From an uncultured Desulfobacter sp. (GTDB lineage: Bacteria; Desulfobacterota; Desulfobacteria; Desulfobacterales; Desulfobacteraceae), in the NCBI GenBank assembly GCA_963665095.1, contig OY762069.1, forward strand, positions 3,872,001 to 3,936,000: a DNA stretch of 64,000 nt. Reading direction: 5' to 3'. Shown piece by piece: positions 6,902 through 43,733 of the stretch. A program made the translations under genes and the position numbers. Positions within the stretch are counted from its first letter, which is position 1. Each line of letters opens with the position of its first letter. The notes under the pieces were generated by a model. That model worked only from the letters and a program-made list of their open reading frames with translations. It was not told the DNA's origin and did no database searches.

Positions 6902-7879
6902 TTACTCCCTTTTTTGTTGAAACACCACGGCATACACACAGACAGAGACCACAATGGTCAGGCCGTAAACCAGGCGGGTCCAGAAGCCGGACAACCCCAT
7001 GCTGATGATGCCGGCCTCAAGAATACCGATGATCACGGCACCGGCAAGGGTGCCGAAAATCGTCCCCGTGCCGCCAAATACCGATGTGCCGCCAATGAAA
7101 ATGGAGGCAAACACGATGAGCAGATACCCCTCTCCCTGGGTGGGCCACCAGTTGGCCATCTCCAGGCAGATCATCACGGCGGCCAGGGCGCTGACCGCCC
7201 CCATGGCCACAAAGAGCAGAATGCGGGTCCCCTGGGTATTGATGCCCATCATTTCAGCGGTTTTAATGTCGTCTCCGATGAACAGGACATTGTCCCCGAA
7301 CACGTGGCGATGCAGTATCAGCCAGGCAAAACCCGCCAGGCCCAGACACCACAGGGCCTGCACCGGTATGGTATCAAAAAGACGCCCCACCATCACCGGA
7401 TGCAGCCAGGTATCCCGGACCGCCACCAGGTTCAGCGCCAGACCCGAGGCCAGCACGGTGGTAAGCCCCCGCCAGAAGAACTGGGTGCCGATGGTGGCAA
7501 TGATGGATGGCACCCCGATCTTCACCACCACAATACCGTTGACCAGCCCCACAAAACAGCCGGCCGCAAGGGCAGCCCCAAGGGCCAGAAGGCAGGAGCC
7601 GGTATGGGTGAAACAGAAGGCAAAAATATACCCGGAAAATGCCATCACTGAAGGAAAGGAAAGATCCATCTCCCCTGCCACAATGAGATAGGTAAGGCCC
7701 AGGGCCAGGATGGCGGTAAAGGGGATGGTGGACATGAATGAAATATAGATCCGCAGGGAAAGAAAGGTTTTCGGGCTGAACACCATGAATACCAGCCAGA
7801 AAAAAACCAGCACCCCCAGAACGCCTGCCTGAAGCTTGTGGGTACCCAGAAACCGTGATATCCGCATCCTGATACTCAT
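6902..7879 (-). CDS. Sugar-type (CUT2) ABC transporter permease
   Basis: Multi-TM protein with GEMDLS, PSIIATIG and IGGTSVFGG motifs of RbsC-like permeases. Confidence 0.9.
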   Translation of the reverse strand: MSIRMRISRFLGTHKLQAGVLGVLVFFWLVFMVFSPKTFLSLRIYISFMSTIPFTAILALGLTYLIVAGEMDLSFPSVMAFSGYIFAFCFTHTGSCLLALGAALAAGCFVGLVNGIVVVKIGVPSIIATIGTQFFWRGLTTVLASGLALNLVAVRDTWLHPVMVGRLFDTIPVQALWCLGLAGFAWLILHRHVFGDNVLFIGDDIKTAEMMGINTQGTRILLFVAMGAVSALAAVMICLEMANWWPTQGEGYLLIVFASIFIGGTSVFGGTGTIFGTLAGAVIIGILEAGIISMGLSGFWTRLVYGLTIVVSVCVYAVVFQQKRE

Positions 7880-21178: not shown

Positions 21179-22279
21179 CTATCCGAACCCAAAATCAGGC
21201 AACGGTAAGGGGCGGATATAGTAGATGTGACATCTGAGCTTGAGGCCCGCCCCGCATTCCGGGCAAATTGGCTTTGGCGAAGATTTGGGTGTTTCTATAG
21301 GCCGCTGTTCTTTGAACCCCAGGGTTGACTGGATAAGTGAACGGATTCGTTCAAGCGGGATGGAAGATCCCGGTCCCATGAAGCCATAATATCGGATTTT
21401 CATAAATCCTGTGGGCAGGACATGCTGAAGGAACCTGCGCATAAATTCCATTGTATCAAGGGTCATTTTCCGCAGGCGCCGGCTGCCGGGCTTTTTATAA
21501 TGGAACATCACCTTCTGCTGATCGTAATGGATAATCCGGTAGTCGGAAATCGCCACTTTGAACACATAGGGGGCCAGGTATTTGATACTGTGGTGACTGG
21601 AAACGGCCTGGGAATTTACGTTGAACGGCTTTGACCAGACGTCCGGAGCAATACTTTGAAGTATTCCGGCCGTATTCAGCTGGGTTTTAAGCTTTGCTCT
21701 GAACACCTTGGACATGGCTTTGACCGGAGCGAAGAAGGCCGGACGGCAGGGATGCCATTTGCCGTCGGTCCGGGAATATGCTCCGCCGGGAACAACATAA
21801 TGGATGTGCGGATGATACTGCATGGTCCGTCCCCAGGTGTGAAGGACTCCAAAAAAGCCGGGCAGATCACCGCCGATGAATTTGCTGTCCCTGGCAAAGG
21901 CTTTAAGTGTCTGTGAGGATGCCGCAAACAGTGCCGCATAGGCCTCCTTCTGGTTGCTTCGAAACAGAGCGCGCAATTGTTCCGGGATGGTAAATGTTAT
22001 CAGAAAATGAGGGCCCGGCAGTTGTCGTTCCAGCTGCCGGTCACGCCACTGGCGGGTTTTATGGTACTGGCATATGGGGCAGTGACGGTTTCCACAGGAA
22101 CGAAAACCGAAATGTATCCGGCCGCAGCCGGTACAATCATAGACCACCAGGCCGCAGGCAGACGTCCGGCAGGAAATGATTGCCTTCAAGGCTTTTATGT
22201 GATTTTTTGGAATGCGGGTTTTATACCGATGGAGGTATTCCCGGGCTGACCGGGCAAAAATGTTTTGAATGGCTCCCAT
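21179..22279 (-). CDS. IS91-family rolling-circle transposase
   Basis: Zn-binding N-terminus (CRT..C..CTGC..SCGNRHCPIC), HUH motif HPHIH, Y2 motif YLAPY and HVLPTGFMKIRYYGF. Confidence 0.93.
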   Translation of the reverse strand: MGAIQNIFARSAREYLHRYKTRIPKNHIKALKAIISCRTSACGLVVYDCTGCGRIHFGFRSCGNRHCPICQYHKTRQWRDRQLERQLPGPHFLITFTIPEQLRALFRSNQKEAYAALFAASSQTLKAFARDSKFIGGDLPGFFGVLHTWGRTMQYHPHIHYVVPGGAYSRTDGKWHPCRPAFFAPVKAMSKVFRAKLKTQLNTAGILQSIAPDVWSKPFNVNSQAVSSHHSIKYLAPYVFKVAISDYRIIHYDQQKVMFHYKKPGSRRLRKMTLDTMEFMRRFLQHVLPTGFMKIRYYGFMGPGSSIPLERIRSLIQSTLGFKEQRPIETPKSSPKPICPECGAGLKLRCHIYYIRPLPLPDFGFG

Positions 22280-22281
22280 GG

Positions 22282-23151
22282 CTACACCTCCTTCATCAGA
22301 TCATTGATAAGTCCGCAGGCGTGTTCATGCCCCTGGGTGGTCAGATGCAGGTAAACCATGGTGGTGGTCAGACTGCTGTGGCCCAGATACTGCTGGATGC
22401 GCCGGATGTTGACACCTGCTTCGAGCAGATGGGTGGCGTAGCTGTGGCGAAGGGTGTGGATGGTGACCCGTTTTGTGATGGGCAAAGAGGTCAGTGTCTG
22501 TCTCAGGGCTCCCCTGACGGAATTGCTCCTCATGGGTTCTTCTGCTGTTGAGGCTTCTTTGCCGTTGCGTCCAAGTTTTGGAAAGATCAGTTTGGGGTTG
22601 CGATGGGTGGCCCAGTATTCACGCAGAATAAAAAGTGTCTTTTCAGGCAGCGGCACGTATCGGTCCTTTGCGCCTTTGCCCCGATGGACATGGATGAACA
22701 TGCGCTGGCTGTCAATGTCCCTGACCTGGAGGCTCAATCCCTCATTGAGCCTGAGACCGCAGGAGTAGACAGTGGTCAGGTAGGCTTTGTTCCAGGGTGT
22801 CCGGACAGCAGTAAGAATGGACTTAACCTCGTTAATACTGAGTACGGATGGTAACCGCTGTTCCCGTTTGGCATTAATCAGGGCAAGCGTATGCCAGTCC
22901 CGCTGCAGCACATTGATGAAGAAGAACTTTATGCCGCTGTAGCAGATACGCATGGTGGCGGCAGACCATTGATCAACGTTTTTGCGATGGAGAAAATAAT
23001 CCTGCAGTTCCCGCTCGGTGATTTCATCAGGGGTTTTGCCGAAGAAATCGACCAGCATACGGATAGCGCGGGTGTAGTTCTTTTGAGTGGAAGTGCTCAT
23101 CCCGGCAAGTTGCAGGGCCCTCATTGATTGTTGATAATAATCGCTCATCAT
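22282..23151 (-). CDS. Tyrosine recombinase associated with the IS91-like transposase
   Basis: Catalytic R (GLRLNE), K (GKGAKDR), HTLRH, LGH and Y (MVYLH). Likely start at MMSDYY. Confidence 0.9.
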
Positions 23152-23285
23152 ACCGTCTCCTTTCATGTGAAGGGTTAATTGGATTGGCGTCCAGATACGA
23201 TACGATGAAAATGACGGGCAATGCAACTTGCCGATTTTATTAATTAGAGTAGTTGTTTGGCTGCCGCGTAGCGGCTTACTTGAAC

Positions 23286-24344: not shown

Positions 24345-25718
24345 ATGCATATGCAACGTATGGACTGGGAAAAGTTGTTAGCTGAAGAACGGTGTGGTTC
24401 TGAGACAAAAAAAAGTAATGATGGTCGAAGTCAATTCCAAAAAGATATTGATAGGATTACATTTTCAAGCTCATTCCGAAGATTGGGAAGGAAAACGCAA
24501 GTTCACCCGCTGAATGAAAACGATCATATACATACTCGTTTGTCTCATAGCTTGGAGGTTGCCTGCGTTGGAAGAAGCCTTGGCCTTATGTTGGGGTATT
24601 TTTTAGAATCTATAAAGGAACTCCCCAAAAATATAACCCCTTCAAATGTTGGTGAAATTTTACGTGCTGCCTGCTTGGCTCATGATATTGGGAACCCTCC
24701 TTTTGGCCATGCCGGTGAAGAAGTCATAAAAAAATGGTTTACGCAAGCTTTTCAGGCATCGGAATTAAAAAACAGAATAACACCTAAAGCTTATGAATCA
24801 GATTTTACATGCTACGATGGTAATGCAATGGCATTTCGGATTGTTGTATATAAAGAGTATTATACAGGTAACGGAGGGATGAGACTTACCTATCCAACAA
24901 TAGGGGCAATGTTGAAGTATCCTTGGACTTCACACTACGTCGAAAAAAAGGAAAAATTTAGTTGTTTTATTTCTGAATTTGATGTCTTTACTAAAATTTG
25001 CGAAAAATTAGGACTTAATTGCATAGAAAAATCTATTGAGGAAAGAAAAGCGAAATTTGTACGCCATCCATTGGCATTTATGGTCGAGGCAGCAGATGAT
25101 ATTTGCTATAAAATATTAGATATAGAAGATGCAGTTGAGTTAGGTCTGTTGGACCCTTGCTTTATGGAACAACAATTCAAATCTAAATTACGCCTAAAAG
25201 ATGAAGAGAATGAACTTTTAAGTTCTGAATTGGTTTCAAGGAGGACGAAGAATGCTTTATTACGTGGAAAAATGATGGAGCTTTTAATATCTGATACATT
25301 TCAAGTTTTTAAGGATAATTACAATCAAATAATGGAAGGTAGCTACAACACAGGCTTAATCGATACGAAAACTAAAGAAAGTTGCAATGCCCTTAATGAC
25401 GCATATCAATACGTAATTGATACTGTGTATTCAAGTAGACGTAAAACATTAATTGAAATCGGGGCATTTTCAACAATTGGTCATTTACTAGACACACTCA
25501 GTGAGGCGGCCTTTCAAGTTTGTTTCTTAGAAAAAAATCGTCGATCTTATAAAACAAAAAAAATTTGTGAGCTATTAAAATCGAATATCCCCGATGTTTC
25601 TAAGCCAGATCCCGCATCGTTTTATTATGGACTTATGTTTGCTTTAGATTATGTAACAGGAATGACTGATCAATATGCAACATCAATGAACAAAAAAATT
25701 TTGGGACTTGATGTATAA
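24345..25718 (+). CDS. dgt: Cassette 3: dNTP triphosphohydrolase (dGTPase family)
   Basis: FRRLGRKTQV, HTRLSHSLEV, LAHDIGNPPFGHAGE, DGNA, KYP, EAADDICY and DYVTGMTD. Confidence 0.9.
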   Translation: MHMQRMDWEKLLAEERCGSETKKSNDGRSQFQKDIDRITFSSSFRRLGRKTQVHPLNENDHIHTRLSHSLEVACVGRSLGLMLGYFLESIKELPKNITPSNVGEILRAACLAHDIGNPPFGHAGEEVIKKWFTQAFQASELKNRITPKAYESDFTCYDGNAMAFRIVVYKEYYTGNGGMRLTYPTIGAMLKYPWTSHYVEKKEKFSCFISEFDVFTKICEKLGLNCIEKSIEERKAKFVRHPLAFMVEAADDICYKILDIEDAVELGLLDPCFMEQQFKSKLRLKDEENELLSSELVSRRTKNALLRGKMMELLISDTFQVFKDNYNQIMEGSYNTGLIDTKTKESCNALNDAYQYVIDTVYSSRRKTLIEIGAFSTIGHLLDTLSEAAFQVCFLEKNRRSYKTKKICELLKSNIPDVSKPDPASFYYGLMFALDYVTGMTDQYATSMNKKILGLDV

Positions 25719-25723
25719 AATTC

Positions 25724-25775
25724 GGCCTGCATTGCACCTGACTCGCGGAGCTCGCCGATGAATTTTACGTTATGT
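25724..25775 (+). other. attC3, short and degenerate (R'' AAC missing)
   Basis: GGCC matches the upstream GTTGGCC but lacks AAC. Ends in GTTATGT, followed by an RBS/ATG of a truncated cassette at 25804. Confidence 0.55.
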
Positions 25776-25814
25776 GTAAGATGTAAGAAAATAAAGGATC
25801 ATCATGAAATATGA

Positions 25815-26412
25815 ACTTTAGAACACGTTTATCCTTTGTCTTAGTAGCCAGTCTGCTCATCAAACGGTCGTGGTTCACCCTGTCAAAGAATTTTGACAGA
25901 TCCATGTCAACGGTATATCCGTACCCTGAAGCCAGATGATGCCTGGCCCTGAAGATTGCTTTATGCTGAGATTTTCCCGGCCTGAATCCAAAACTCGAAT
26001 TAGAAAAGGAAGGGTCCCAGATCTCTTGCAGAACCTGGCCTATTGCCTGTTGGATCAGACGATCCAGAATAGTGGGAATACCAAGCAGTCTTACGCCTCC
26101 CCCTGGCTTTGGAATTTCTTTCCTCCTGACCGGGGATGGCTTGTACCTGCCGTTTAACAGGTCTTCCCTGATTTTAGGCCAATGGCGTTTAAGGTATCCC
26201 GGCAGTTGCTCAACAGTCATCTTGTCGATACCGGGTGCCCCTTTGTTACCACGGACCCGTGCTAGTGCTTTAAACATATTTCCCCTCTCAAGGATCATCT
26301 CCATGAGCCTGGGACTTTTTGCCAGATGTTCGGTAAACAGATACGCTACAGTTATTTCAGGCGGCTGCTGCATGATAACCATAAGTAATATGCTCCTAAT
26401 AATCGTTTTCAT
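25815..26412 (-). pseudogene. ltrA: Truncated class C intron reverse transcriptase/maturase
   Basis: NKGAPGID, EIPKPGGGVRLLGIPTILDRLIQQA, SFGFRPG and DLSKFFDRVNHD. No YADD; fused to cassette remnant DNA. Confidence 0.88.
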
Positions 26413-31518: not shown

Positions 31519-31563
31519 AAGGCCAATCGGGATAGGACTCCCCATCACTGAGGAGCCCTCCCA

Positions 31564-33113
31564 GGTGAGTAGCCCAAAGGAACTTCCCCTTCAGGCTCTC
31601 TCAGAACCGGACGTGAATCTCTCGACTCATCCGGCTCCTATCGTTCAGCCGTTTTTTTTTCAGGACACGCCAATGTACAAAAAGGTTCGGCTGTCGTTCA
31701 GCAATCTGTGTCAACCATCTTGTGGCCTTTTGTTGACGTCCCCTGAGTTTCTTATATTTACAGATTGCCCAACGTACTAACCGCCAATTTATATGATGGA
31801 GAATCCCAGACATCTCAGAAGGATTGTACCGCCAGTAATAATTAATCCAGCCTTGAATTATTGGATTACATTCTATAGCCAGATCCTCAAGCGTGTCCCC
31901 TGGCCGTAATTGCCAGTTCCAACTGCGTACTTTCTGTCTGATTGCCTTTGCAGCCTTGTTGCTTATCGCTGGTGTGAAGTTTTCAAAAAATTTTCCTCTG
32001 CGTTTTCTTGATAATCTGGGCCGAAATGTATACCCTAGAAAATCAAACTTCATAACAGGATAATCTCCTTTTCGATCTTCATCCTTGCAATAAACTATTT
32101 TTGTCTTTTCAGGGTGCAGCTCCAACCCACATTCACCAAACCTTAACTCCAAGTCAGCTTTCAACTGTTTGGCTAATGGTTCAGTTCTGCAGTGGCAAAC
32201 AGCATCATCGGCATATCGCTCAAAAGGCACATACGAATAGTTTCGCTGCATCCAATGATCGAAAACATAATGCAAAAATAAATTTGCCAGCAAGGGACTA
32301 ACCACTCCTCCTTGCGGAGTTCCTTTTTGCGGATAAACAAGTGATCCGTCCGGCATTGCGATTGGGGCCTTTAGCCACCGTTCAACATACAAAAGTACCC
32401 AGCGACAATCTGTGTGTTTTACTACAGCTCTCATCAAAAGTTCATGACTGATATTGTCAAAAAATCCTTTGACATCAAGATCCAACACCCAGTCATACCG
32501 CCAGCATCTTTTGCGTGCTTCCCCCACGGCATCCAGGGCTGACTTGTTTGGCCGATAACCATACGAGTCCGGATGAAAATGATGCTCTAATAACGGTTCG
32601 AGATACTGTTTTACAACCATCTGGGCGACACGATCTCCCACAGTTGGAATACCAAGGGGCCTCATTCGGCCATCCCCTTTTGGTATCTCTATACGCGCTA
32701 CCGGAGGAGGGAAATAACTGCCGGAAGACATCCGGTTCCATATTTTGAAAAGGTTATTGGTAATATCCTTTTCAAAATCAACTATGGACTGATTATCTAT
32801 TCCAGCCCCACCACGGTTTGCTTTCACGCATTTGTATGCTTCCCAAACTTGACGCTTTGAGATAATAAACGACTTTACTTTTTTCAACAGAATCCTTCCC
32901 TATACGGGTTGTTCTTATGTTAAAAGTTGAACGACGCAACCCCTTCGCTCCAGTCCCATTGCAGCACCTTCTTCACTACTACGAGTTGCTCCGCCCCTGT
33001 GCTCCGCTTCGGTACTCTGATCCTTGTGGTGCTTCCACTTGGATTTCTCCCTTAGCATCGGAACGACAGGTTCCCATGTTCCATAAGAAAGCCTAAGATA
33101 TGTTCATGCCGCC
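31564..33113 (-). mobile_element. Class D (RmInt1-like) group II intron lacking the 5' part of domain I
   Basis: DV GAGCCGGATGAGTCGAGAGATTCACGTCCGGTTC and 3' end CTACTCACC. No GTGYG 5' end at the junction. Confidence 0.85.
31601..32887 (-). CDS. ltrA: Group II intron reverse transcriptase/maturase, class D, no endonuclease domain
   Basis: KIWNRMSSGSYFPPPV, LGIPTVGDR, GTPQGGVVSPLLANLFLH, ERYADD, FDFLGYTF and maturase X domain. Confidence 0.93.
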   Translation of the reverse strand: MKKVKSFIISKRQVWEAYKCVKANRGGAGIDNQSIVDFEKDITNNLFKIWNRMSSGSYFPPPVARIEIPKGDGRMRPLGIPTVGDRVAQMVVKQYLEPLLEHHFHPDSYGYRPNKSALDAVGEARKRCWRYDWVLDLDVKGFFDNISHELLMRAVVKHTDCRWVLLYVERWLKAPIAMPDGSLVYPQKGTPQGGVVSPLLANLFLHYVFDHWMQRNYSYVPFERYADDAVCHCRTEPLAKQLKADLELRFGECGLELHPEKTKIVYCKDEDRKGDYPVMKFDFLGYTFRPRLSRKRRGKFFENFTPAISNKAAKAIRQKVRSWNWQLRPGDTLEDLAIECNPIIQGWINYYWRYNPSEMSGILHHINWRLVRWAICKYKKLRGRQQKATRWLTQIAERQPNLFVHWRVLKKKRLNDRSRMSREIHVRF

Positions 33114-33777
33114 ACCCGGCATACGGATCTCGTACCAAGGCGGTTCGGCTGGTATGAATAAAATCAGTTGTAGGTTATCCCACCGATTTTATCGGGTTTT
33201 GGGCAAAGTCTTGCTATGGAAATTTCGGCCACTGCCGCATTATTCCCATAAAATCCTTCTACTTACTCACCACAACCATTTACCCAAGCCATTCGGCCCG
33301 GGTACCGTTCAGGCCTTCATCGGGGTGAGGCCTCCGGGTGTACTTCTCCCATGCCAGAGAGGCCCAGCTCGTTTTTTCCGACTACTATGCCCTCTGCTGA
33401 CTTCTCCCATGCGGTCAGGACCAGTTACCCGGCCCTCAGACAATCCGGCACATGGGAGATCTCCCGGGGTAAACACGTGTCTTTCAGTACCTGAATGCCG
33501 GATTTACGGACATACCCTGTAATGGATAGAGGACTTCACCTTGTTGTGCAGGCTCGTCCCGGTATGTGCGTCTTATATCCGATTTCTGTACGTCATCCCG
33601 TACCTTCGTGGTACCTTGCCTCAGCAAGGCGGCTTCCTCCCGAAGCACCGTCACCGGTACCCCGTTGCACTACCACTACACCCTTCGCCTCCATCCGGCT
33701 GGGTCTAAGACTTGCCAAACGCATTGAAATCGTTTACGTTTGACTCACTTTTAAGAACACGTGCCGTGCCCGGCACA

Positions 33778-34485
33778 ATAGGGATAGGACTCCCCATTAC
33801 TGAGGAGCCCTCCCACACCACCCGGCGTACGGATCTCGTACCAAGGCGGTTCGGCTGGTATGAATAGAATCGGTTGTAGGTTATCCCACCGATTTTATCG
33901 GGCTTTGGGCAAAGTCATGCTATGGAAATTTCGACCACTGCCGCATTATTTCCATAAAATCCTTCTACTTACTCACCACAACCATTTACCCAAGCCATTC
34001 GGCCCGGGTACCGTTCAGGCCTTCATCGGGGTGAGGCCTCCGGGTGTACTTCTCCCATGACAGGGAGGCCCGGCTCGTTTCCTTCCGACTACTATGCCCT
34101 CTGCTGACTTCTCCCATGCGGTCAGGACCGGTTACCCGGCCCTCAGCCAATCCGGCACATGGGAGATCTCCCGGGGTAAACACATGTCTTTCGGTACGTG
34201 AATGCCGGGTTTACGGACATACCCTGTAATGGATAGAGGACTTTGCCTTGTGTGGCAGGCTCGTCCCGGTATGCGCGCCTTATACCCGATTCCTGTACGT
34301 CATCCCGTACCTTCGTGGTGCCTTGCCTCAGCAAAGCGGCTTCCTCCCGAAGCACCGTCACCGGTACCCCGTTGCACTACCACTACACCCTTCGCCTCCA
34401 TCCGGCTGGGTCTAAGACTTGCCAAATGTATTGGAATTCTATACATTTGACTCACTCTTAAGAACATGTGCCGTGCCCGGCACAC
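33778..34485 (-). mobile_element. Complete ORF-less class C group II intron (708 nt), tandem insertion
   Basis: GTGTG 5' end, DV with CGC triad and DVI ending CCCTAT. Short DIV with no RT ORF. Confidence 0.9.
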
Positions 34486-34486
34486 C

Positions 34487-34612
34487 ACCAAACGCTGGAG
34501 CGGGACCGGGCTTACTGCGTGGATTTTTGAAAGTTTGTGGTTCAAGAAAATGTAAACTTTTATCTGAGGATACGGCTTCAAAACGCCCGGCCCCTCAGCT
34601 TCCCCGTTATAA
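34487..34612 (+). other. attC7 main body
   Basis: ACCAAACGCTGGAGCGGGACCGGGC...GCCCGGCCCCTCAGCTTCCCC-GTTATAA. Confidence 0.85.
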
Positions 34613-34630
34613 ATTTGAAGGACAAACGAA

Positions 34631-35362
34631 TTGCATCAAGATAATAAAATTGCATTGCTGATTGATTGTGACAATGTTAGTCACAAATCTATTGAAGGTG
34701 TTATCGATGAACTTTCCAAGTATGGGAAAGTCAATATAAGGCATGCCTATGGAAATTGGAAAAACGATAGTATGAAAGGTTGGGAAGAGAAGTTGCACCC
34801 ACATGCCATCAAACCAATTCAGCAATTTGCATATACTAAGGGTAAAAATGCAACTGATGCTGCTATGATAATTGATGCAATGGATATTTTATATACTCAA
34901 AACCTTGATGCTTTTGCATTAATGACGAGTGATAGCGATTTTACACCGCTGGTTATGCGCATTTTATCTAATGGCATTACAGTTTATGGTTTTGGAGAGA
35001 AAAAAACTCCACAGCCTTTCGTCAAAGCCTGTTCTCAATTTATATACACAGAAAATTTAGAGCAAATAGAAGGGGAAGATGAAAAGCCTGATAATAATGT
35101 AAATGCAAAAAAGACAAGGAACGAACTGAGACAAGATGCAGCATTGGTAAAATTATTAAGAACAGCTGTAGAGCATTTTGCAGATGAGAGTGGATGGTCT
35201 CATTTAGGTCTTGTTGGGCAATATATTAGCAACAAAACCTCATTTTCACCCGTAAATTACGGGTATAAAAAATTAGGCGACTTAATAAGAGTTAGTGATC
35301 TTTTTCATATAGAAATGAGAGATGACAACTCTACTATGTACATAAAAGATATAAGAAAATAA
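34631..35362 (+). CDS. Cassette: NYN-domain (LabA/PIN-like) protein with C-terminal OST-HTH/LOTUS domain
   Basis: IALLIDCDN, KGKNATDAAMIIDAMD, TSDSDFTPL and FSPVNYGYKKLGDLI. Confidence 0.9.
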   Translation: MHQDNKIALLIDCDNVSHKSIEGVIDELSKYGKVNIRHAYGNWKNDSMKGWEEKLHPHAIKPIQQFAYTKGKNATDAAMIIDAMDILYTQNLDAFALMTSDSDFTPLVMRILSNGITVYGFGEKKTPQPFVKACSQFIYTENLEQIEGEDEKPDNNVNAKKTRNELRQDAALVKLLRTAVEHFADESGWSHLGLVGQYISNKTSFSPVNYGYKKLGDLIRVSDLFHIEMRDDNSTMYIKDIRK

Positions 35363-35364
35363 TT

Positions 35365-35493
35365 TTATAACAAAGCCGCTGAACCCGACCGGGCAACCTG
35401 CGCGGCGTTTTGAGGCTGCCTGGTTAATGAAATTTTAAACTTTTACCGGAGCTATTGTGGTTTAAACGCCCGGCCGGTTAGCTCCCCGTTATG
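35365..35493 (+). other. attC8
   Basis: R'' TTATAAC matches GTTATAA at 34606. CCGGGC/GCCCGG arms. R' GTTATG immediately followed by the intron's GTGCG. Confidence 0.88.
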
Positions 35494-36197
35494 GTGCGAC
35501 ACGAGGTCGCATTATTGGCTGTTTGGCGGACCAGTCGGTCCTGACCAAACCCGGCTCCTGCCGGTACCCTAGGTGGCATGCGGTTACCGGTGCATCCGGC
35601 AACGGTGTGAAGCCCAACCGACAAAGTACCGAATTCCGCAGCTGCGGAAGGGGTGGAAGCCGTGAGGCGGATACCCTCCTGGAAGCCTCAATCCGGGTAA
35701 GGGCAAGGGTTTGGATGATATGGTCAAATTAATTGAATGTTCCGTAAGTACCGTCAGGGAGAGCAAGCTAAAAAGGCTGGTAAGCTTGGACCAAAAGGTG
35801 AGCGGTCAGGTTGCAGGTTTCCTAACTGCCTGCACGGAGATGTTGTGCCGCCGGTGCTTAAGGGCAGACCTAAGTCATCCATAAATTGGCAATAATGCGG
35901 AACGTGGAAACCCCGTATCTTCGCCGGGAGTATTCGGCAGGTGAAACTGTAAGGCACACTGATGGAGGTGCGGGCGTAAGATGCAGGAAAAAGCGAATGC
36001 CGTCTTGTAATGAGATGGATACGGATTGAGGCGTATATCCCCAACATTACCCGGCCCGAAAGGGAGCTGACGTCCGGCGGGTGTGACTACAGACACACCC
36101 GGGCAGGTATTTCGTAAGCGTTTAAAGGACCCCATCTACAACTCATTAAAATGACATGAGAAGATGAGCCAACTTTTAATTAACGGAGGCCCATCAT

Positions 36198-36530
36198 ATG
36201 TCAGAAACAGAGAACAAAAACCAAAAGCTAATCCAGTTCTGGAAATACCATATTAAACAATGGTCTGAATCGAGTATGTCCCAAAATGCATACTGCAGGC
36301 AAAATGATTTAAGACCCAATCAATTTACATACTGGAAAATGAAATTCAAAAGCCAGGCACTTGCCCCAGAATTCGTTCAGGTCCCTTCAACGCAGATCAG
36401 CCAGGCACTAAGTCTTTCTGAACAAAAAGGCTTAACGTTGAATACAGATAACGGATTTCAGATCGAAATACCGGATGGCTTTTCCCAAACAACCCTGGCC
36501 CAGGTGCTTCAAGTATTGAGGCGGTGCTGA
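36198..36530 (+). CDS. tnpA: IS66 accessory protein TnpA
   Basis: W..SSMSQNAYCRQNDL..QFTYWK HTH; first ORF of the IS66. Confidence 0.85.
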   Translation: MSETENKNQKLIQFWKYHIKQWSESSMSQNAYCRQNDLRPNQFTYWKMKFKSQALAPEFVQVPSTQISQALSLSEQKGLTLNTDNGFQIEIPDGFSQTTLAQVLQVLRRC

Positions 36531-36883
36531 TGTTTTCTCCCACCCAGAATTTAAAAATTCATATCGCACTTGGAAACACTGATATGCGCAAGTCCATTGA
36601 TGGGCTATCCATACTTGTGAGCGAAAAGTTAAATTTGGATCCATTTTCAGGACACATGTTTGTATTCTGTAATCGGAAACGGAATATATTGAAAATCCTG
36701 TATTGGGATCGCAATGGATTCTGTCTTTGGCATAAGCGCTTGGAAAGGGATTATTTTCAATGGCCCAAGTCAAAAGAGGAAATTTTGACCATCGGAGCAA
36801 AAGAGCTTTCCTGGCTGATGGACGGACTTTCTATTCGTCAGGAAAAAGCACATAAATCATTAAAATATTCGGCTGTTTTTTGA
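36530..36883 (+). CDS. tnpB: IS66 accessory protein TnpB
   Basis: TDMRKSIDGL, FVFCNRKR and LYWDRNGFCLWHKRLE. Confidence 0.92.
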   Translation: MFSPTQNLKIHIALGNTDMRKSIDGLSILVSEKLNLDPFSGHMFVFCNRKRNILKILYWDRNGFCLWHKRLERDYFQWPKSKEEILTIGAKELSWLMDGLSIRQEKAHKSLKYSAVF

Positions 36884-36928
36884 TCATAAAAACTGGTGAA
36901 AACCGCGTGGTTATGGTATATACAACGC

Positions 36929-38521
36929 ATGAATAAAGAGGCTTTTGCAGACATAAATGACGTTGAGAAATTAAAAGAAATGATGGCTTGTTTTGTCAAT
37001 GATTTTTCAGATAGAGAGCACAATTATAAAGCCGAAATCAAAATTCTCAACGAACAGATTAAAAGCCTTCGGGACCAGCTTTTTGGTAAAAAGACAGAAA
37101 AAATCCATAAGAATGACGGTCAACTATCCCTTTTTGATACTTTTGAGCCGGATACGCCCATATTGGACGAACCCGAAGAAATCAGCGTGCCTGCCCATAA
37201 TCGAAAGAAGCCAGGGCGTAGACCTTTGCCTGAAAACCTTCCACGGGTTGAAGTGATCCACGATCTGACCGAGGAAGAAAAAATATGTGCCTGTGGCTGC
37301 ATGAAATCCCGTTGCGGCAAAGAAGAATCTGAACAGCTTGAAATTATTCCGGCACAAGTGAGAGTAATCAGAAACATTCGTTATAAATACGCTTGCAAAA
37401 ACTGCGAAGGTGTTGACGATGATGGGCCAACAGTGTCCATTGCCAGAATGCCGGAACAAATGATCCCCAAGAGCATCGCAACCCCAGGGCTTTTGGCCCA
37501 TATCCTGACAGCCAAATTTGCAGATGCTTTACCCTTCTACCGGCAGGAAAAACAGTTTAACCGAATTGGAGTAGACATCCACAGGTCCAATATGTGCAAT
37601 TGGGCTATGAAAGTGGCCCAGGCCTGTGAGATCCTGCTGGAATATATGAAGGATGAAATCCTTAAAGGCCCAGTGATAAATATTGACGAAACAACAGTCC
37701 AGGTTCTCAAAGAACCGAAACGGTCAAAATGCTATATGTGGGTGTTCAAAGGAGGGACACCGGATAATCCCATTATTCTGTTCCAGTATCACCCAACTCG
37801 ATCCGGGGATGTTGCCCGGAATTTTTTGAACGGTTATCAAGGTGTTGTTCAGACGGATGGCTATGCTGGCTATGACTTTCTTGATCATATTGTGGAAATC
37901 ATTCATGTTGCGTGCTGGGCACACGCACGTCGAAAGTTCATGGCTGTGGTCAAAGCTGCCGGAAATAAAACTGGCAACCCAACGGGAACCGCCGGCAAAG
38001 CCCTGAAGTACATCAGCAAATTATACAAAATAGAAAGAGAGGCCAAAGAACTTGGTTTGTCTGCTGATGGACTTTACTGGAAAAGGCAGGAGCTATCCTT
38101 GCCTATCCTTGATGAATTTAAAAAATGGTTGGATGCTCAAGTTGAAAAGGTACCGCCCAAAAGTCTTCTTGGTAAAGCCATTAACTACACCCTTAATCAA
38201 TGGCATAGATTGGTTCTGTATACGGCAAGTGGTCTGGTAATGCCGGATAATAATGTAGTCGAAAATGCCATAAGACCCTTTGTGGTGGGCAGAAAAAATT
38301 GGTTGTTTTCATGTACACCTGCGGGCGCCGATGCCAGTGCCTGCATTTACAGCCTGATCGAAACAGCCAAGGCCAATGGGCTTGAACCTTACTGGTACCT
38401 CAAATTTCTCTTTGAAAATTTACCGGAAGCCATGACGGAAGATGAATTTAAAGCCTTGATGCCACAAAACGTGGATAAACATTTGCTGGAATCCAACTAT
38501 ACAACACCCCGTCAGGCTTAA
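36929..38521 (+). CDS. tnpC: IS66 transposase TnpC
   Basis: Leucine zipper, Zn-ribbon, IDETT, QTDGY, CWAHARRKF and DNNVVENAIRP. Confidence 0.93.
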   Translation: MNKEAFADINDVEKLKEMMACFVNDFSDREHNYKAEIKILNEQIKSLRDQLFGKKTEKIHKNDGQLSLFDTFEPDTPILDEPEEISVPAHNRKKPGRRPLPENLPRVEVIHDLTEEEKICACGCMKSRCGKEESEQLEIIPAQVRVIRNIRYKYACKNCEGVDDDGPTVSIARMPEQMIPKSIATPGLLAHILTAKFADALPFYRQEKQFNRIGVDIHRSNMCNWAMKVAQACEILLEYMKDEILKGPVINIDETTVQVLKEPKRSKCYMWVFKGGTPDNPIILFQYHPTRSGDVARNFLNGYQGVVQTDGYAGYDFLDHIVEIIHVACWAHARRKFMAVVKAAGNKTGNPTGTAGKALKYISKLYKIEREAKELGLSADGLYWKRQELSLPILDEFKKWLDAQVEKVPPKSLLGKAINYTLNQWHRLVLYTASGLVMPDNNVVENAIRPFVVGRKNWLFSCTPAGADASACIYSLIETAKANGLEPYWYLKFLFENLPEAMTEDEFKALMPQNVDKHLLESNYTTPRQA

Positions 38522-38781
38522 AAAGGTGCGGTTGATACACCGCTTACGGTATTTCTTTGCAAGAGAGTCTGGAGAATCTTTGAGGATGGTGTAGATTCCC
38601 GAAATAACCTGAACAAAAACCCGCCAAATTTTTCATATTAAATTGACAAAGTTCCATTTTTCTCAAATTATCCTGTACAGGTTCTGATCAAAGCATTCTG
38701 ACAAAAATGAAAAGGGCGAAAAGCTTTGCAGAGCCTCGCCCTTAAGACCGGGATTTATAAAATCCCAAAACAACCATAAAA

Positions 38782-39228
38782 ATGATAATAAAGGTCAAAG
38801 CTGATATCAAGCAAATTTTCAAGCAGGGCAAAAATTTTACATGGCCAAAACCGTCACGATGTCCACATTGCAACGACTCCAGGCTGTGGGGACACGGCTT
38901 TGTACTCTCCTTTTTTGATGGATTTGATCAAGGGGTGTATTTGAAGCGATATCGCTGCCCCTATTGCAAAACCGTATTCAAATTGAAGCCATATGGTTTT
39001 TTCAAGAGGTTCCAGGCCAGTATCTGGCAAATCCTTACCAGCATTATGAGTCGTCTATACACTGACCGGTATCTGCCGGAACTCTCCTGGAACCGACAGC
39101 ATTTTTGGTTTACTGCATTGAAACGAAATATAGCGGCCTACCTGTCCAACAGTTGGGACAAAGGTGTGGTTGCTGGTTTTATCAAGCTAATCGGTATGGG
39201 TAAAATCCCGGTTACCAGTTCAATTTAA
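38782..39228 (+). CDS. Zn-ribbon accessory protein (DUF6431-like)
   Basis: CPHC..LWGHG..RYRCPYC; first gene of the element. Confidence 0.7.
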   Translation: MIIKVKADIKQIFKQGKNFTWPKPSRCPHCNDSRLWGHGFVLSFFDGFDQGVYLKRYRCPYCKTVFKLKPYGFFKRFQASIWQILTSIMSRLYTDRYLPELSWNRQHFWFTALKRNIAAYLSNSWDKGVVAGFIKLIGMGKIPVTSSI

Positions 39229-39331
39229 CCATGGGGCTGGATCAGGTTTAAACCACCCTACCGAAGGCTGTGATTTACCGAAGGATCATACTGTCATACA
39301 AGCCCTTAGAACCAAATTTTAAGGAGGAAGT

Positions 39332-40588
39332 ATGACAGAAAATCAGAAAAATGAGGTTGCCGTGTTCAGGTTTGGGGTCATTTGTGAATTTGTGACCGGA
39401 ACAAATTTTGATTACGGTGAAAAAGAACGAATTTTACAGCAGAAGTGCGCCCGCAAATGGTCCATCCCGTATTCTGGAAGGACCAGGCTTTCCAGAAGTA
39501 CGATTCTGGGATGGGTCCGGCAGTATAACGGTCGAATAGAGTCTCTTTACCCCAAAGACCGTTCAGACCAGGGAAAATCAAGGGTATTCGATGACGAGAC
39601 TGCATCTCAACTAATCAAACTCCGGTTAGACCAGCCTGATGCGACAGTCGATACATTGATCTGTTCACTTCAAAAAACTACATGCCAGACATACAGTCCA
39701 TCCAGTGTATACCGTTTTTTACGCGGCCGGGGGCTAATGAACACGGCCCGGCCAGAGGATAGAAGAAAGTTTGAAGCCCCGCACCCCAATGATATGTGGC
39801 AAAGCGACGTCATGCACGGCCCTACAGTCCTGGTTCAGGATAAGCAAAGAAAAACGTACCTGATTGCCATTATGGACGATCATTCCAGGCTGGTTACGGC
39901 TGCAGGTTTTTATTTATCTGAGAATCTGAAGACCTATCTTATGGTGCTGGAGCAGGCTTTTTTGAGCCGTGGGCTTCCCCGCAAGCTGTATGTAGATAAC
40001 GGTCCTGCGTTCAGATCCCATCATTTAAAATATGTAGCAGCGTCTCTGTCCATCGCTTTAATCCATGCAAGGCCATATAAGCCCCAGGGGAAAGGTAAAA
40101 TCGAGCGCTGGTTCAGAACGGTTCGGCTTCAGTTTCTGCAAAGATTTACAGGTAAGACCCTGGATGATCTGAATGGGGCATTTGAGAAGTGGCTTCATAA
40201 TGAGTACCATCAGCGTAAACACAGCTCCACAGGCGAATCACCGTTTAAAAGATTTACCTCGGCCATGGAGTGCATCCGTACCGCCCCACCGGATCTGAAA
40301 GACCACTTCCGCAAAACCGCCCGGCGCAAGGTGGCAAAGGACCGAACCATAACCCTTGACGGCAACATGTTTGAGGCCCCGGTTGCGCTGATCGGCAGAC
40401 ATGTGGATGTAAAGTACCATGAGGACACCCCTTTGCAGGCTGAAGTTATCTATAAAGCAAAGTCTTATGGCTTGTTAACCCCGGTGGACCTTGCTGTGAA
40501 CTGCCGGGTCAAGCGGCACCGCTGGAACGAAAATGATATCCGGATTATGCCTGAACCCTCAAATTACAAGGGAGGGCAACTGTTATGA
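39332..40588 (+). CDS. DDE transposase (rve/Mu-like) with C-terminal Mu-transpos_C-like domain
   Basis: WQSDVMHG, DDHSR, LYVDNG and GKGKIERWF. Confidence 0.9.
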   Translation: MTENQKNEVAVFRFGVICEFVTGTNFDYGEKERILQQKCARKWSIPYSGRTRLSRSTILGWVRQYNGRIESLYPKDRSDQGKSRVFDDETASQLIKLRLDQPDATVDTLICSLQKTTCQTYSPSSVYRFLRGRGLMNTARPEDRRKFEAPHPNDMWQSDVMHGPTVLVQDKQRKTYLIAIMDDHSRLVTAAGFYLSENLKTYLMVLEQAFLSRGLPRKLYVDNGPAFRSHHLKYVAASLSIALIHARPYKPQGKGKIERWFRTVRLQFLQRFTGKTLDDLNGAFEKWLHNEYHQRKHSSTGESPFKRFTSAMECIRTAPPDLKDHFRKTARRKVAKDRTITLDGNMFEAPVALIGRHVDVKYHEDTPLQAEVIYKAKSYGLLTPVDLAVNCRVKRHRWNENDIRIMPEPSNYKGGQLL

Positions 40589-41394
40589 GTGAAATGTATC
40601 GCACCTTTTTTGGCTTATCCAGGGAGGCCTTCCCGGCGCAGATAGAAATTAATGATATCCTGGTTACCCCGGAGGTCTCGGGCGTTAAAAATCGGATTGA
40701 TTATTCCTTAAGACTTGGCTGCAGTGCGGTTATCACAGGGGATGTGGGCAGCGGAAAGTCCACCGCCTTAAGGTATGCCGCCTCATCCCTACACCCTTCG
40801 GAATACAAAGTCTTTTATGTTACGGCCTCAAGCGGTTCCATCATGGAACTTTACCGGCAGATTGTTGAAGAACTGGGCATAGAGCGGACATCGACGTCCC
40901 GCGCTGTTATGATCTCCATTATTAAAAATGAAATACGTGAATTCGTCCTGGGAAAAAAGATCAAAACCGTTTTGATTATAGATGAGGCATCTCTGCTTCG
41001 CATGGAAGTCTTTGCCGAACTTCACACCCTGGTTCAATTTGAAAAAGACGCCATGCCCTGGCTGCCTGTGATCCTTGCAGGTCAGCCGACATTGATAGAT
41101 AAGCTTCAGTACCGGACGTCAATCCCGTTTGCATCCAGGATTGTGGCTAAAAGCCATCTGGATGGTCTGGATGTGGCTGGAATGAAAACTTACCTGATCC
41201 ATCATTTAAAACTATGCGGTGTTGACACCAACTTTTTTTCTGACCAGGCGGTGACTGCGATTCATCAAGGCTCCGGCGGCCTTTTACGAAAGGCGAATAA
41301 TCTTGCCAGAGGCTCATTGATTGCTGCTGCGGCAGAAAAATCAATGACGGTATCTGCAGAGCATGTCCGCATTGCTTCATCGGAGATTTTTTAA
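40585..41394 (+). CDS. ExeA-family AAA ATPase (transposition helper)
   Basis: Walker A GDVGSGKST, Walker B LIIDEA and ILAGQP. Overlaps the transposase stop. Confidence 0.88.
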   Translation: MSEMYRTFFGLSREAFPAQIEINDILVTPEVSGVKNRIDYSLRLGCSAVITGDVGSGKSTALRYAASSLHPSEYKVFYVTASSGSIMELYRQIVEELGIERTSTSRAVMISIIKNEIREFVLGKKIKTVLIIDEASLLRMEVFAELHTLVQFEKDAMPWLPVILAGQPTLIDKLQYRTSIPFASRIVAKSHLDGLDVAGMKTYLIHHLKLCGVDTNFFSDQAVTAIHQGSGGLLRKANNLARGSLIAAAAEKSMTVSAEHVRIASSEIF

Positions 41395-42043
41395 GAAAAA
41401 ACAGCCATAGAGCAGAATATTACGATTTCGGTGAAACGGAGCCGGGCTCTGCTGAGGAGCAACCTGGTAAGGGATAGCCGGAAGCAGGCAGCATTGAATA
41501 ATGCGCCAGGGGAAGTGGGGATTACCTGCTTCCCCTTTCTGCTTTATTCAAGCTGTTCTGCCTATGCCTTAAAAACCTACTGAGAAGGAGCGCAGCGACT
41601 TCTGTAGCTGTCTTAAATAATATGGAAAAGATTTAATCTGTTCAAAATAATTAGAAAATTTAAGTCAGGATAAAATGCGACTCAACAATGGGAAAGCAAA
41701 TGACGGCAATAGCTGGTGCGCCATCAGCAGCTTTACGCTGTTAAAAGACTGTAGATGCGTATCGCAAAGGTTGTTAAAGTAGCACACGGCATATGCGCCA
41801 GAGGTTCTTTCAAAAGGATGCATTTTCTTTTGACTCGGAAAAAGAACAGTGCTTTCCGAGAGAATGCTCAAGGACATATGCTATGAAATAACTGTAAATT
41901 TCATTATTGCTAAAACAACCGGGCGGCCCGCAAGGCTTAGTCTTAGAAATGCTTGAGCCGTATGATGGGAAACTGTCACGTACGGTTCTGAGGGGGCCTG
42001 GGGTAGATAACTACCCCAGGCTACCCGATTTTCAAAAAAATCG

Positions 42044-42080
42044 TTGCACGGATCCAAAAGTAATACTACAATGGTATTAC
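42044..42080 (+). promoter_or_regulatory. TA promoter with overlapping palindromic operator
   Basis: TTGCAC-17 nt-TACAAT. GTAATAC/GTATTAC inverted repeat spans the -10. Confidence 0.65.
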
Positions 42081-42100
42081 ATTATCAAAGGAGATTTATT

Positions 42101-42325
42101 ATGCGTGTAACCACAAAAGGCCAAGTCACTATCCCCAAGAATGTAAGGGAAATATTAGGTATTGCTCCAGAGACAGACGTTGATTTTCAAGAAGATAACG
42201 GAAGATTTTATCTGGTCAAAGTATCAAAAAACAAACCGACCTCTAAATTTTCGAAGTTAAGGGGGATTGCTACAGCTAAAATGTCTACAGACGAAATCAT
42301 GAATATGACAAGAAAAATAAAATGA
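42101..42325 (+). CDS. AbrB/MazE/SpoVT-family antitoxin
   Basis: MRVTTKGQVTIPKNVREILGI, with AGGAG RBS. Confidence 0.9.
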   Translation: MRVTTKGQVTIPKNVREILGIAPETDVDFQEDNGRFYLVKVSKNKPTSKFSKLRGIATAKMSTDEIMNMTRKIK

Positions 42326-42726
42326 ACGGAATTTTCATTGATTCGTGTGTGTTGCTTGATCTGTTTACGAATGATTCTAAATGGGGAAACTGGTCTGAAG
42401 ACGTATTAAGTCAGTGTAGCCAGACGAATACATTATTCATTAATTCAATTGTGTATACCGAAATATCAATTGGTTTCAACCGTATTGAAGAAGTCGAGGA
42501 AGCTGTTGAACAAGTGGGTGTAAAAGTCCTGGAAATTCCACGCGAAGCTTTGTTTTTGGCTGGAAAGACATTCCTTGAGTATCGAAGAAATAAGGGCACT
42601 AAAAGTTCAACCCTTCCGGATTTCTTCATTGGTGCTCACGCTACAGTATCTTCATTTGACTTAGTCACAAGGGACATTGCAAAATATAGAACGTATTTCC
42701 CAAACATAAAACTTATTTGCCCATGA
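42322..42726 (+). CDS. vapC: VapC/PIN-domain toxin
   Basis: IFIDSCVLLD, YTEISIGF, LPDFFIGAHA and VTRD. Confidence 0.9.
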   Translation: MNGIFIDSCVLLDLFTNDSKWGNWSEDVLSQCSQTNTLFINSIVYTEISIGFNRIEEVEEAVEQVGVKVLEIPREALFLAGKTFLEYRRNKGTKSSTLPDFFIGAHATVSSFDLVTRDIAKYRTYFPNIKLICP

Positions 42727-42814
42727 TTTGCTTCAAGACGTGGTCGCAAACAAATTTTGAACTTTATACCAAGCGAATAGGGATAGGACTCCCCATCACT
42801 GAGGAGCCCTCCCA

Positions 42815-43733
42815 GGTGAGTAGCCCAAAGGAACTTCCCCTTCAGGCTCTCTCAGAACCGGTCGTGAATCTCTCGACTCATCCGGCTCCTATCGTTCAGC
42901 CGTTTTTTTTTCAGGACACGCCAATGTACAAAAAGGTTCGGCTGTCGTTCAGCAATCTGTGTCAACCATCTTGTGGCCTTTTGTTGACGTCCCCTGAGTT
43001 TCTTATATTTACAGGTTGCCCAACGTACTAACCGCCAATTTATATGATGGAGAATCCCAGACATCTCAGAAGGATTGTACCGCCCGTAATAATTAATCCA
43101 GCCTTGAATTATTGGATTACATTCTATAGCCAGATCCTCAAGCGTGTCCCCTGGCCGTAATTGCCAGTTCCAACTGCGTACTTTCTGTCTGATTGCCTTT
43201 GCAGCCTTGTTGCTTATCGCTGGTGTGAAGTTTTCAAAAAATTTTCCTCTGCGATTTCTTGATAATCTGGGCCGAAATGTATACCCTAGAAAATCAAACT
43301 TCATAACAGGATAATCTCCTTTTCGATCTTCATCCTTGCAATAAACTATTTTTGTCTTTTCAGGGTGCAGCTCCAACCCACATTCACCAAACCTTAACTC
43401 CAAGTCAGCTTTCAACTGTTTGGCTAATGGTTCAGTTCTGCAGTGGCAAACAGCATCATCGGCATATCGCTCAAAAGGCACATACGAATAGTTTCGCTGC
43501 ATCCAATGATCGAAAACATAATGCAAAAATAAATTTGCCAGCAAGGGACTAACCACTCCTCCTTGCGGAGTTCCTTTTTGCGGATAAACAAGTGATCCGT
43601 CCGGCATTGCGATTGGGGCCTTTAGCCACCGTTCAACATACAAAAGTACCCAGCGACAATCTGTGTGTTTTACTACAGCTCTCATCAAAAGTTCATGATT
43701 GATATTGTCAAAAAATCCTTTCTCATGGCACAC
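42815..43733 (-). pseudogene. Class D intron with both termini but a large internal deletion (only the 3' two-thirds of the RT remains)
   Basis: GTGTGCCATGAG joined directly to the KGFFDNI codons. The remainder is near-identical to 31564-32470. Confidence 0.85.

Follow-up and report, generated by a model that had tools for sequence, protein, structure and literature searches.

Within a 64,000-nucleotide stretch of an uncultured Desulfobacter genome (contig OY762069.1; this whole stretch is called the window here), a group II intron occupies positions 35494-42029 of the + strand, directly behind a recombination site (attC) of an integron cassette array. It is a group IIB1 intron without an open reading frame (ORF), derived from class CL1 and carrying IS66 and an IS481-like element inside it. 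Very probably it is a non-autonomous, now apparently inactive copy of a CL1/IIB1 clade that homes to the integron core by pairing between exon-binding sites (EBS) of the intron and intron-binding sites (IBS) of the target. The intron is oriented as the cassettes are and is inserted three bases past the GTT of the attC R' box (GTT+3 in the following), the seventh base of the box being replaced by the first G of the intron. A first-pass annotation, made from the letters of the window, had proposed that EBS1 of this intron is programmed against the integron core. The strings it quoted (GTTATG, GTGCG, the d3 stem, CCTAAC, and GGGAGAGC at 35757-35764) all sit where it put them, and the comparison with relatives supports its proposal of attC targeting by base pairing at R', on the other strand and at the other end from class C introns.

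Searches with the reverse transcriptase (RT) of L008, a full-length relative in the same genome, gave 41 genome and 80 metagenome loci, 102 of which were analysed together with L008 itself; loci with a truncated N-terminus or little upstream DNA were left out, and the 5' end was located in 88 of the 103. Removal of duplicates left 63 relatives whose RT shares 60% identity or more. At the DNA level, 161 genomes of the family were searched; domain I was present in 25 of them, which added 27 further sites, and copies found in this way include the RT-encoding L138, L142, L144, L163 and L164. Two diverged relatives (L151 and L154, both GTT+3) were left out by hand. The final set holds 94 sites, 83 of them scored and 11 without an exon or a standard d3 region. 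The RT tree is a quick IQ-TREE run with SH-aLRT support only, from which L041 and L044 were dropped as too short.

A structure-blind scan of 80 sites places the best complement of exon positions -1 to -6, antiparallel, at 35821..35826 of the window, that is at CCTAAC, and the best complements of exon positions -9, -10 and -11 at 35758, 35759 and 35760. Over the 83 scored sites EBS1 and IBS1 form a mean of 5.14 of 6 pairs, compared with 3.28 when exons are permuted (0 of 5000 permutations as high). Only loop positions 4-9 behave in this way, with the other five windows of the loop pairing at 1.6-2.94. The statistics and the scan thus bear out the earlier assignment of CCTAAC to the EBS1 loop. 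EBS2 does pair with the upstream exon, as had also been suggested, although GGGAGAGC against GCTCCC needs a bulge and the contiguous helix is limited to GGGAG/CTCCC (Table 1). The loop-loop contact alpha-alpha' matches in 70 of 84 relatives (permuted mean 18, maximum 31), and this covariation fixes the fold around d3; covariation is what assigns EBS1, EBS2 and alpha. No single column was resolved by a blind scan for the delta-delta' pairing. Among 15 close copies, 35822 and 35823 belong to the four most variable of 416 columns.

The position of the AAC within EBS1 also predicts the exact bond. With AAC at EBS1 positions 4-6 the intron sits at GTT+3 (35 sites), with AAC at positions 3-5 it sits at GTT+2 (30 sites), and the crosswise combinations number 0 and 0, so that the rule holds in 65/65 informative sites. 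Since the sites are kin, the Fisher value of this table is no real probability, but members of the two registers are intermingled on the RT tree. The remaining 18 scored sites comprise seven AAC-type introns without GTT at the junction, three at GTT+4, two GAC-type loops at GTT+3 and six unrelated loops. EBS3 follows the register: it is G in 33 of 38 GTT+3-type loops and C in 33 of 34 GTT+2-type loops, as the core consensus GTTRRRY predicts, and with its position set by hand EBS3 pairs with IBS3 in 30 of 48 sites (permuted mean 19.1). In a sample of the phylum, 12 of 401 genomes had a match, and the insertion rule holds in all three close relatives whose start could be located.

The targets are for the most part recognizable att sites, and insertion at att cores is clade-wide. 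GTT stands at the junction in 50 of the 62 RT-encoding relatives for which an exon is available (L112, among these 50, is not at an att site) and in 23 of the 24 copies with a domain I identity of 90% or more; the prospect that relatives would prove to sit mostly at non-attC sites is not borne out by these exons. Of the 69 GTT sites that had 150 bases of exon available, 27 satisfy a strict test of attC geometry (control: 6 of 4000 random genomic GTT, 0.15%) and 47 a loose one (control: 78/2500, 3.1%). The site in the window passes the strict test, with TAAC in R'' and 7/7 matches between L'' and L', and has the expected inverted boxes R''/R' and L''/L' and the extra base in L''. When 29 of the failures of the attC tests were viewed by eye, many, though not all, had a degenerate R'' or an R'' cut by another intron. 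The loose test was too noisy on the arrays of this genome to give an occupancy rate. Two further copies, L142 and L144, lie beside the integrase gene intI, which scores above the cut-off next to L142 and is truncated next to L144; their sites end in CTACTT-GTT and GTACTT-GTT, and opposite these they carry the EBS2 sequences AAGTAG and AAGTAC. The site beside intI in the genome studied here is likewise CTACTT-GTTGGG and is empty. L142, L144 and L146 are grouped as this attI-type branch, with L186:2852-2868 noted alongside them.

Several observations weigh against homing by base pairing, or against the strength of the case. The seven scored AAC-type introns without GTT at the junction do not follow the rule, although two of them follow another intron's end. 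Pairing is often imperfect, with 5/6 pairs in the window copy (the value originally claimed) and 3/6 in L145, and the EBS2 runs are short, averaging 3.4 against 2.3 after permutation. EBS3 pairs in 18 of 21 GTT+3-type sites but in only 8 of 21 GTT+2-type sites, and the blind scan gave no clear EBS3 column. Even under the loose attC test 22 of the 69 GTT sites do not qualify, some being attI-like or cut by other elements; a third hairpin test, of a fuzzy kind and with lower sensitivity than the others, recovered only 15 of the 69. The sites are related by descent, so that permutation values overstate, and the set was gathered by similarity to two queries. In this genome no intact parent RT was found, the nearest being 59% identical. 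Finally, the 5' exon in the window differs from the native start of the downstream cassette, so its junction is no clean record of one insertion.

Such imperfect EBS1 and short EBS2 pairing at many sites would be expected if the main determinant were the top-strand hairpin of attC, read by the RT or the RNA, with EBS1 only fixing the exact bond, in line with a speculation of Sonbol and Siam. The four copies inserted one base further on, at GTT+4, point the same way, as does the placement of EBS2 opposite the spacer that is left unpaired in the folded attC. We nevertheless consider this explanation unlikely: the attI sites beside intI fail the attC hairpin tests and yet are occupied by introns with a matching EBS2, relatives with a changed EBS1 have left att sites and pair 6/6, and the insertion point tracks the EBS1 register in 65/65. 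The hairpin or a protein may still play a supporting role beside pairing. That there is no targeting, with wide insertion and survival only at harmless cassette starts, would fit a position that keeps GTT intact and the toxin-antitoxin modules of several downstream cassettes, which would favour retention, but it is very improbable, because survival bias cannot explain why the RNA loop is complementary to GTT in 56 of the 62 RT-encoding relatives, or why loop and junction shift together by one base.

Under homing by base pairing, then, we infer that pairing selects the insertion site in vivo. The intron RNA, bound by an RT without endonuclease, would pair its EBS1, ending in AAC, with GTT and the next two to three bases of the top strand, its EBS2 with the spacer between L' and R' and its EBS3 with the next base, and would then reverse splice at that point. 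This would occur into single-stranded DNA at the replication fork, a route that the available text of PMC4424553 gives as established for introns lacking the endonuclease. Since entry is behind the G/TT crossover point, the recombination core would stay intact and the intron would come to form the beginning of the downstream cassette, oriented as the cassettes are transcribed. Orientation relative to replication, judged from the GC skew with its minimum at about 4.7 Mb and its maximum at about 1.1 Mb, was tried as a further indicator and is uninformative: four of six genome copies lie with the fork and the window copy lies against it. A single metatranscriptome contig of a relative (run X15) joins the last base of the intron, a C and the first base; an additional C is also known from circles of Ll.LtrB and RmInt1, according to the available part of PMC4478347. 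A tandem DNA copy would give the same junction, and tandem copies exist, so the contig is a weak hint of splicing activity in the family.

Some members seem to have left att sites. Seven relatives at non-att sites each pair 6/6 with their own exon. On the tree they make up a single clade (SH-aLRT 95), and since this lies within a 66-row clade (94) containing every att-type member, the departure looks derived. None of 12 outgroup exons passes the attC test, none of seven plasmid CL1 introns has GTT at the junction, and more distant RTs (43-55%) are located elsewhere. Four introns of a more distant lineage (L217, L219, L220 and L221; G136), with 49-54% RT identity and EBS1 GCGTTT, sit at four different attC-like ends with the core split GT|T and have the 3' exons TAAATT, TATGTG, TGTACA and TATGTG; they represent a third register, possibly of independent origin. 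The outgroup L029-L047, from Bacillota, lies in a conserved coding motif, presumably the HSDxG motif of IS3-type transposases, and is another case of homing to a conserved multi-copy target.

The anatomy of the window intron is given in Table 1. Group II hallmarks are all found: a GUGYG 5' end (GTGCG at 35494-35498), the AGC triad of domain V, the bulged A of domain VI and an AY 3' end (CTACCCGAT at 42029). Rfam models match on the + strand at 35550-35704 (D1D4-7, 79.8 bits) and 41953-42029 (D5/D6, 67.7 bits). Removal of both inserted elements leaves 992 nucleotides (620+34+338), the length expected in the first-pass annotation, and the d3 hairpin it had singled out is present in both the minimum free energy and the centroid folds of 35494-36115. 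The six-nucleotide EBS1 in the d3 loop together with EBS2 is a IIB1 trait.

Table 1. Features of the window intron and its flanks (window coordinates).
Feature	Positions	Strand	Details
Upstream cassette gene, NYN + OST-HTH	34631..35362	+	
attC	35365..35494	+	R'' TTATAAC 35365-35371; L'' GCTGAACC 35378-35385; L' GGTTAGC 35476-35482; spacer TCCCC; R' GTTATG 35488-35493
IBS2 CTCCC	35482..35486	+	exon -12 to -8; last base of L' plus spacer
IBS1 GTTATG	35488..35493	+	5/6 pairs with EBS1
Intron 5' part: domain I, domains II-III, start of domain IV	35494..36113	+	domain I basal stem 35509-35517 / 35890-35898; limits of II-IV by eye
Hairpin Ib with alpha loop	35550..35564	+	alpha' GGAGA at 35836-35840
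EBS2 GGGAG	35757..35761	+	placed by blind scan
d3 hairpin	35812..35834	+	stem TGCAGG 35812-35817 / CCTGCA 35829-35834, 11-nucleotide loop; EBS1 CCTAAC 35821-35826 = loop positions 4-9
Probable EBS3 (A)	35860	+	opposite T at 3' exon +1; assigned by hand
IS66 (tnpA, tnpB, tnpC)	36114..38547	+	inside presumed domain IV; 8-bp duplication GGTATTTC 36106-36113 / 38548-38555
Domain IV piece, to former RT start codon region	38556..38589	+	91% to parent
IS481-like element: small ORF, DDE integrase-core transposase, AAA ATPase	38590..41687	+	TG..CA ends; 4-bp duplication ATGG
Decayed RT gene remnants	41692..41954	+	bits of parent ORF N-terminus and C-terminal ..ARLSLRNA end
Domains V and VI	41955..42029	+	AGC triad 41956-41958; bulged A 42023; end GAT
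Downstream cassette, AbrB/MazE antitoxin + PIN toxin	42030..42777	+	R'' CAAGCGAA 42770-42777, cut by bottom-strand intron

The parents of the window element are represented by L138 and L164, 93% identical to it in domain I (93% to the full-length L164 over the whole 5' part, 35494..36113), with an intact RT whose ends match the remnants. The window copy itself has no intact gene for an intron-encoded protein, and it lacks the CATT that copies c2, c3 and c4 have after 35554, which removes the five-base match of alpha to alpha' GGAGA. With no RT, 5.5 kb of insertion sequences (IS) in domain IV, one of them on the former start codon, and four bases missing from the alpha loop, it has probably lost all or nearly all activity; the two insertions and the alpha-loop deletion would together account for its inactivation. 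IS66 has four near-full copies in the genome. The IS481-like element, whose transposase scores 208.7 bits against NF033577 (below the cut-off of 224), has 14 near-full copies over 99% identical and was thus recently active.

The two junctions of the window copy are probably chimeric. Five intron-free alleles of the downstream toxin-antitoxin cassette start GTTCGC, in contrast to the 5' exon GTTATG, the R'' of that cassette matches GTTCGCTT and not GTTATGT, and the empty alleles place the junction six bases after G. Recombination between two intron copies, later than the insertion, would be the simplest reading of these discordant junctions. The discord between exon and cassette is also seen in copy c3, whereas L135, L014 and L127 are concordant over 7-9 bases and represent clean joins. 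In another genome this cassette also bears the intron, and the array there has several copies within 15 kb. The seven-base exon GTTCTCG recurs ahead of copies with differing downstream cassettes (c3 at C1:944702, L163 and L218). Toxin-antitoxin modules lie downstream of the window copy, c4, L011, L164, L165 and L166; 7 of 30 first downstream ORFs match such families in Pfam, a count with no background rate for comparison. Contigs from sequencing runs, none of them spanning the stretch, list no joint that skips the whole intron, i.e., neither splicing nor an empty allele of the exact site, and matches in a promoter scan of 34400-36200 are no more than chance.

The 5' part of the intron has seven matches in the genome: four near-identical copies that include a 5' end, two fragments (one 5', one internal) and the full-length L008, which encodes a 497-amino-acid RT without an endonuclease domain and sits behind GTTATA with EBS1 TCTAAC. 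The four copies are each preceded by AGCTCCCC-GTT, with exons GTTATG, GTTTCT, GTTCTCG and GTTGGGG and, in the same order, EBS1 loops CCTAAC, CGGAAC, CGGAAC and CTTAGC; the 5' fragment lies behind ATTATG, after an attC-like hairpin. One copy is uninterrupted, with 998 nucleotides, and folds the same d3 hairpin (z -6.3). The ORF-less form is present at three different sites in this genome, forms of 990-1005 nucleotides occupy six sites in other genomes, and forms of 934-1005 nucleotides altogether lie at distinct att sites in several genomes. This spread suggests that the ORF-less form moves with an RT supplied in trans. A different RT-encoding intron, L215 (G000:C1:115955-117166), is 51% identical to L138 and has an EBS1, CCGTAG, that pairs 6/6 with CTACGG, not at a GTT core.

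The earlier class call, CL1/IIB, is upheld. The RTs of the clade have the domains RVT_N, RVT_1 and GIIM, and the best PDB match of both RTs searched is 6ME0 (E 3e-163 and 3e-151; LtrA and IIC RTs 1e-33 to 1e-40), which leads the other RT matches by over 110 orders of magnitude. We take 6ME0 to be the T. elongatus T.el4h maturase, of type IIB1/CL1; it has 562 amino acids, compared with about 500-525 in the clade, and is not known to be linked to integrons. The assignment of the RT to CL1 holds on these data, the distinction of CL1 from CL2 coming partly from general background and from PMC7923331, with no curated CL1/CL2 reference in the tree.

Judged by the accessible parts of the literature, group IIC-attC introns such as S.ma.I2 insert in the bottom strand at R'', antisense to the cassettes and splitting attC, and use an EBS1 of 3-4 bp with a DNA stem-loop in place of EBS2 (PMC3001079, PMC4424553, PMC8876359, PMC7923331). 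The clade resembles them in being group II retroelements specialised on integron attC, but it enters the top strand behind the GTT of R', with a six-nucleotide EBS1 and an EBS2, and keeps the attC core; the window intron is no group IIC-attC intron by strand, by its place at R', by an RT far from IIC or by the presence of EBS2. In the passages available, reviews distinguish three target specificities among group II introns of bacteria, with attC assigned to class C alone (PMC4424553), and attC targeting is treated as class C only in PMC4424553, PMC3001079 and PMC8876359. A top-strand IIC intron of Enterobacter cloacae is cited in PMC7923331, and a CL1 intron in a Shewanella integron is mentioned, in the text at hand, with no position (PMC9229058).

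The closest published case is UHB.I2, a IIB1 intron with a CL1 protein lacking the endonuclease, from a soda-lake metagenome (Sonbol and Siam 2021, PMC7923331). It lies, like the clade, directly behind attC in cassette orientation, and as this was printed in 2021 the novelty is less than the first-pass annotation had suggested, which had itself advised a literature check. By eye, the d3 loop in supplement 1 has AGAACG at positions 4-9 and the N-terminus of the protein resembles L008; Table S1 gives the attC as c(7295..7364) and the intron start as 7296; provided that the attC call extends to the final base of R', this is a GTT+2 insertion, in agreement with the rule described here. In that study the exons were found to be poorly conserved and the EBS3 bulge to be missing, and a role for the hairpin was put forward as speculation. 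As far as the accessible text goes, that paper presents a single case, with no clade, EBS1-GTT rule, registers, attI form or ORF-less forms; the window copy differs from UHB.I2 in being ORF-less, of the GTT+3 type and interrupted by IS. ORF-less bacterial group II introns are described, in the part of PMC4424553 available, as rare and non-mobile, and share with those of the clade the remnants of a protein gene and RT-encoding relatives in the same genomes; those of the clade, however, occupy distinct att sites in several genomes. A base-pairing EBS1-GTT rule and this clade were not found in the literature on introns at integrons, mostly open-access, as far as its accessible text extends. The chemistry is, in all likelihood, that of standard group IIB homing, with one printed example, and the predicted targeting rule is the new part.

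If the rule is correct, ordinary EBS/IBS homing can aim at a degenerate, multi-copy recombination core, and introns have a second, non-destructive way to colonise integrons. Introns would then be carried along with cassettes and serve as hot spots of recombination within arrays. The clade supplies natural pairs of EBS1 and target, and for annotation it matters that the intron hides the start of the next cassette. More tentatively, and with somewhat less than an even chance of being right as a whole, a widespread CL1 clade may have tuned all three EBS to GTTRRRY, in two registers and an attI branch, with a second CL1-like lineage arriving independently via GT/T. The intron would be cassette cargo moved by IntI, while 1-kb ORF-less derivatives would spread in trans, diversify EBS1 to track cassette starts and supply the homology that deletes or swaps cassettes with no integrase; the mismatched junctions of the window copy suggest such swapping.

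The array has no intI of its own, since the integrase at 22282-23226 scores 170.8, below the intI cut-off of 265, and lies beside an IS91-type transposase; the sole genome match above the cut-off, C1:910169-911113, is 3 Mb away. This IS91-type transposase and intI-like tyrosine recombinase (21179-23226) occur in three identical-scoring copies in the genome, and near the start of the array a dGTPase gene (24345-25718, above the cut-off of NF002205) is present as a cassette. Bottom-strand introns at R'' are found at 31524-31639, 33776-33815 and 42775-42890 and appear nested; an uninterrupted form of such an intron at 42814 is seen in contigs. The RT at 25765-26412, from a bottom-strand intron of the same array, is closest to GsI-IIC. 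A second intron, with a 428-amino-acid RT (31601-32887) that we assume from its motifs to be class D-like, appears to sit at the D5/D6 border of a class C-like intron. Among the relatives of the window intron, copies L104, L105 and L218:reverse 3223 are stacked immediately after the 3' end of a different group II intron.

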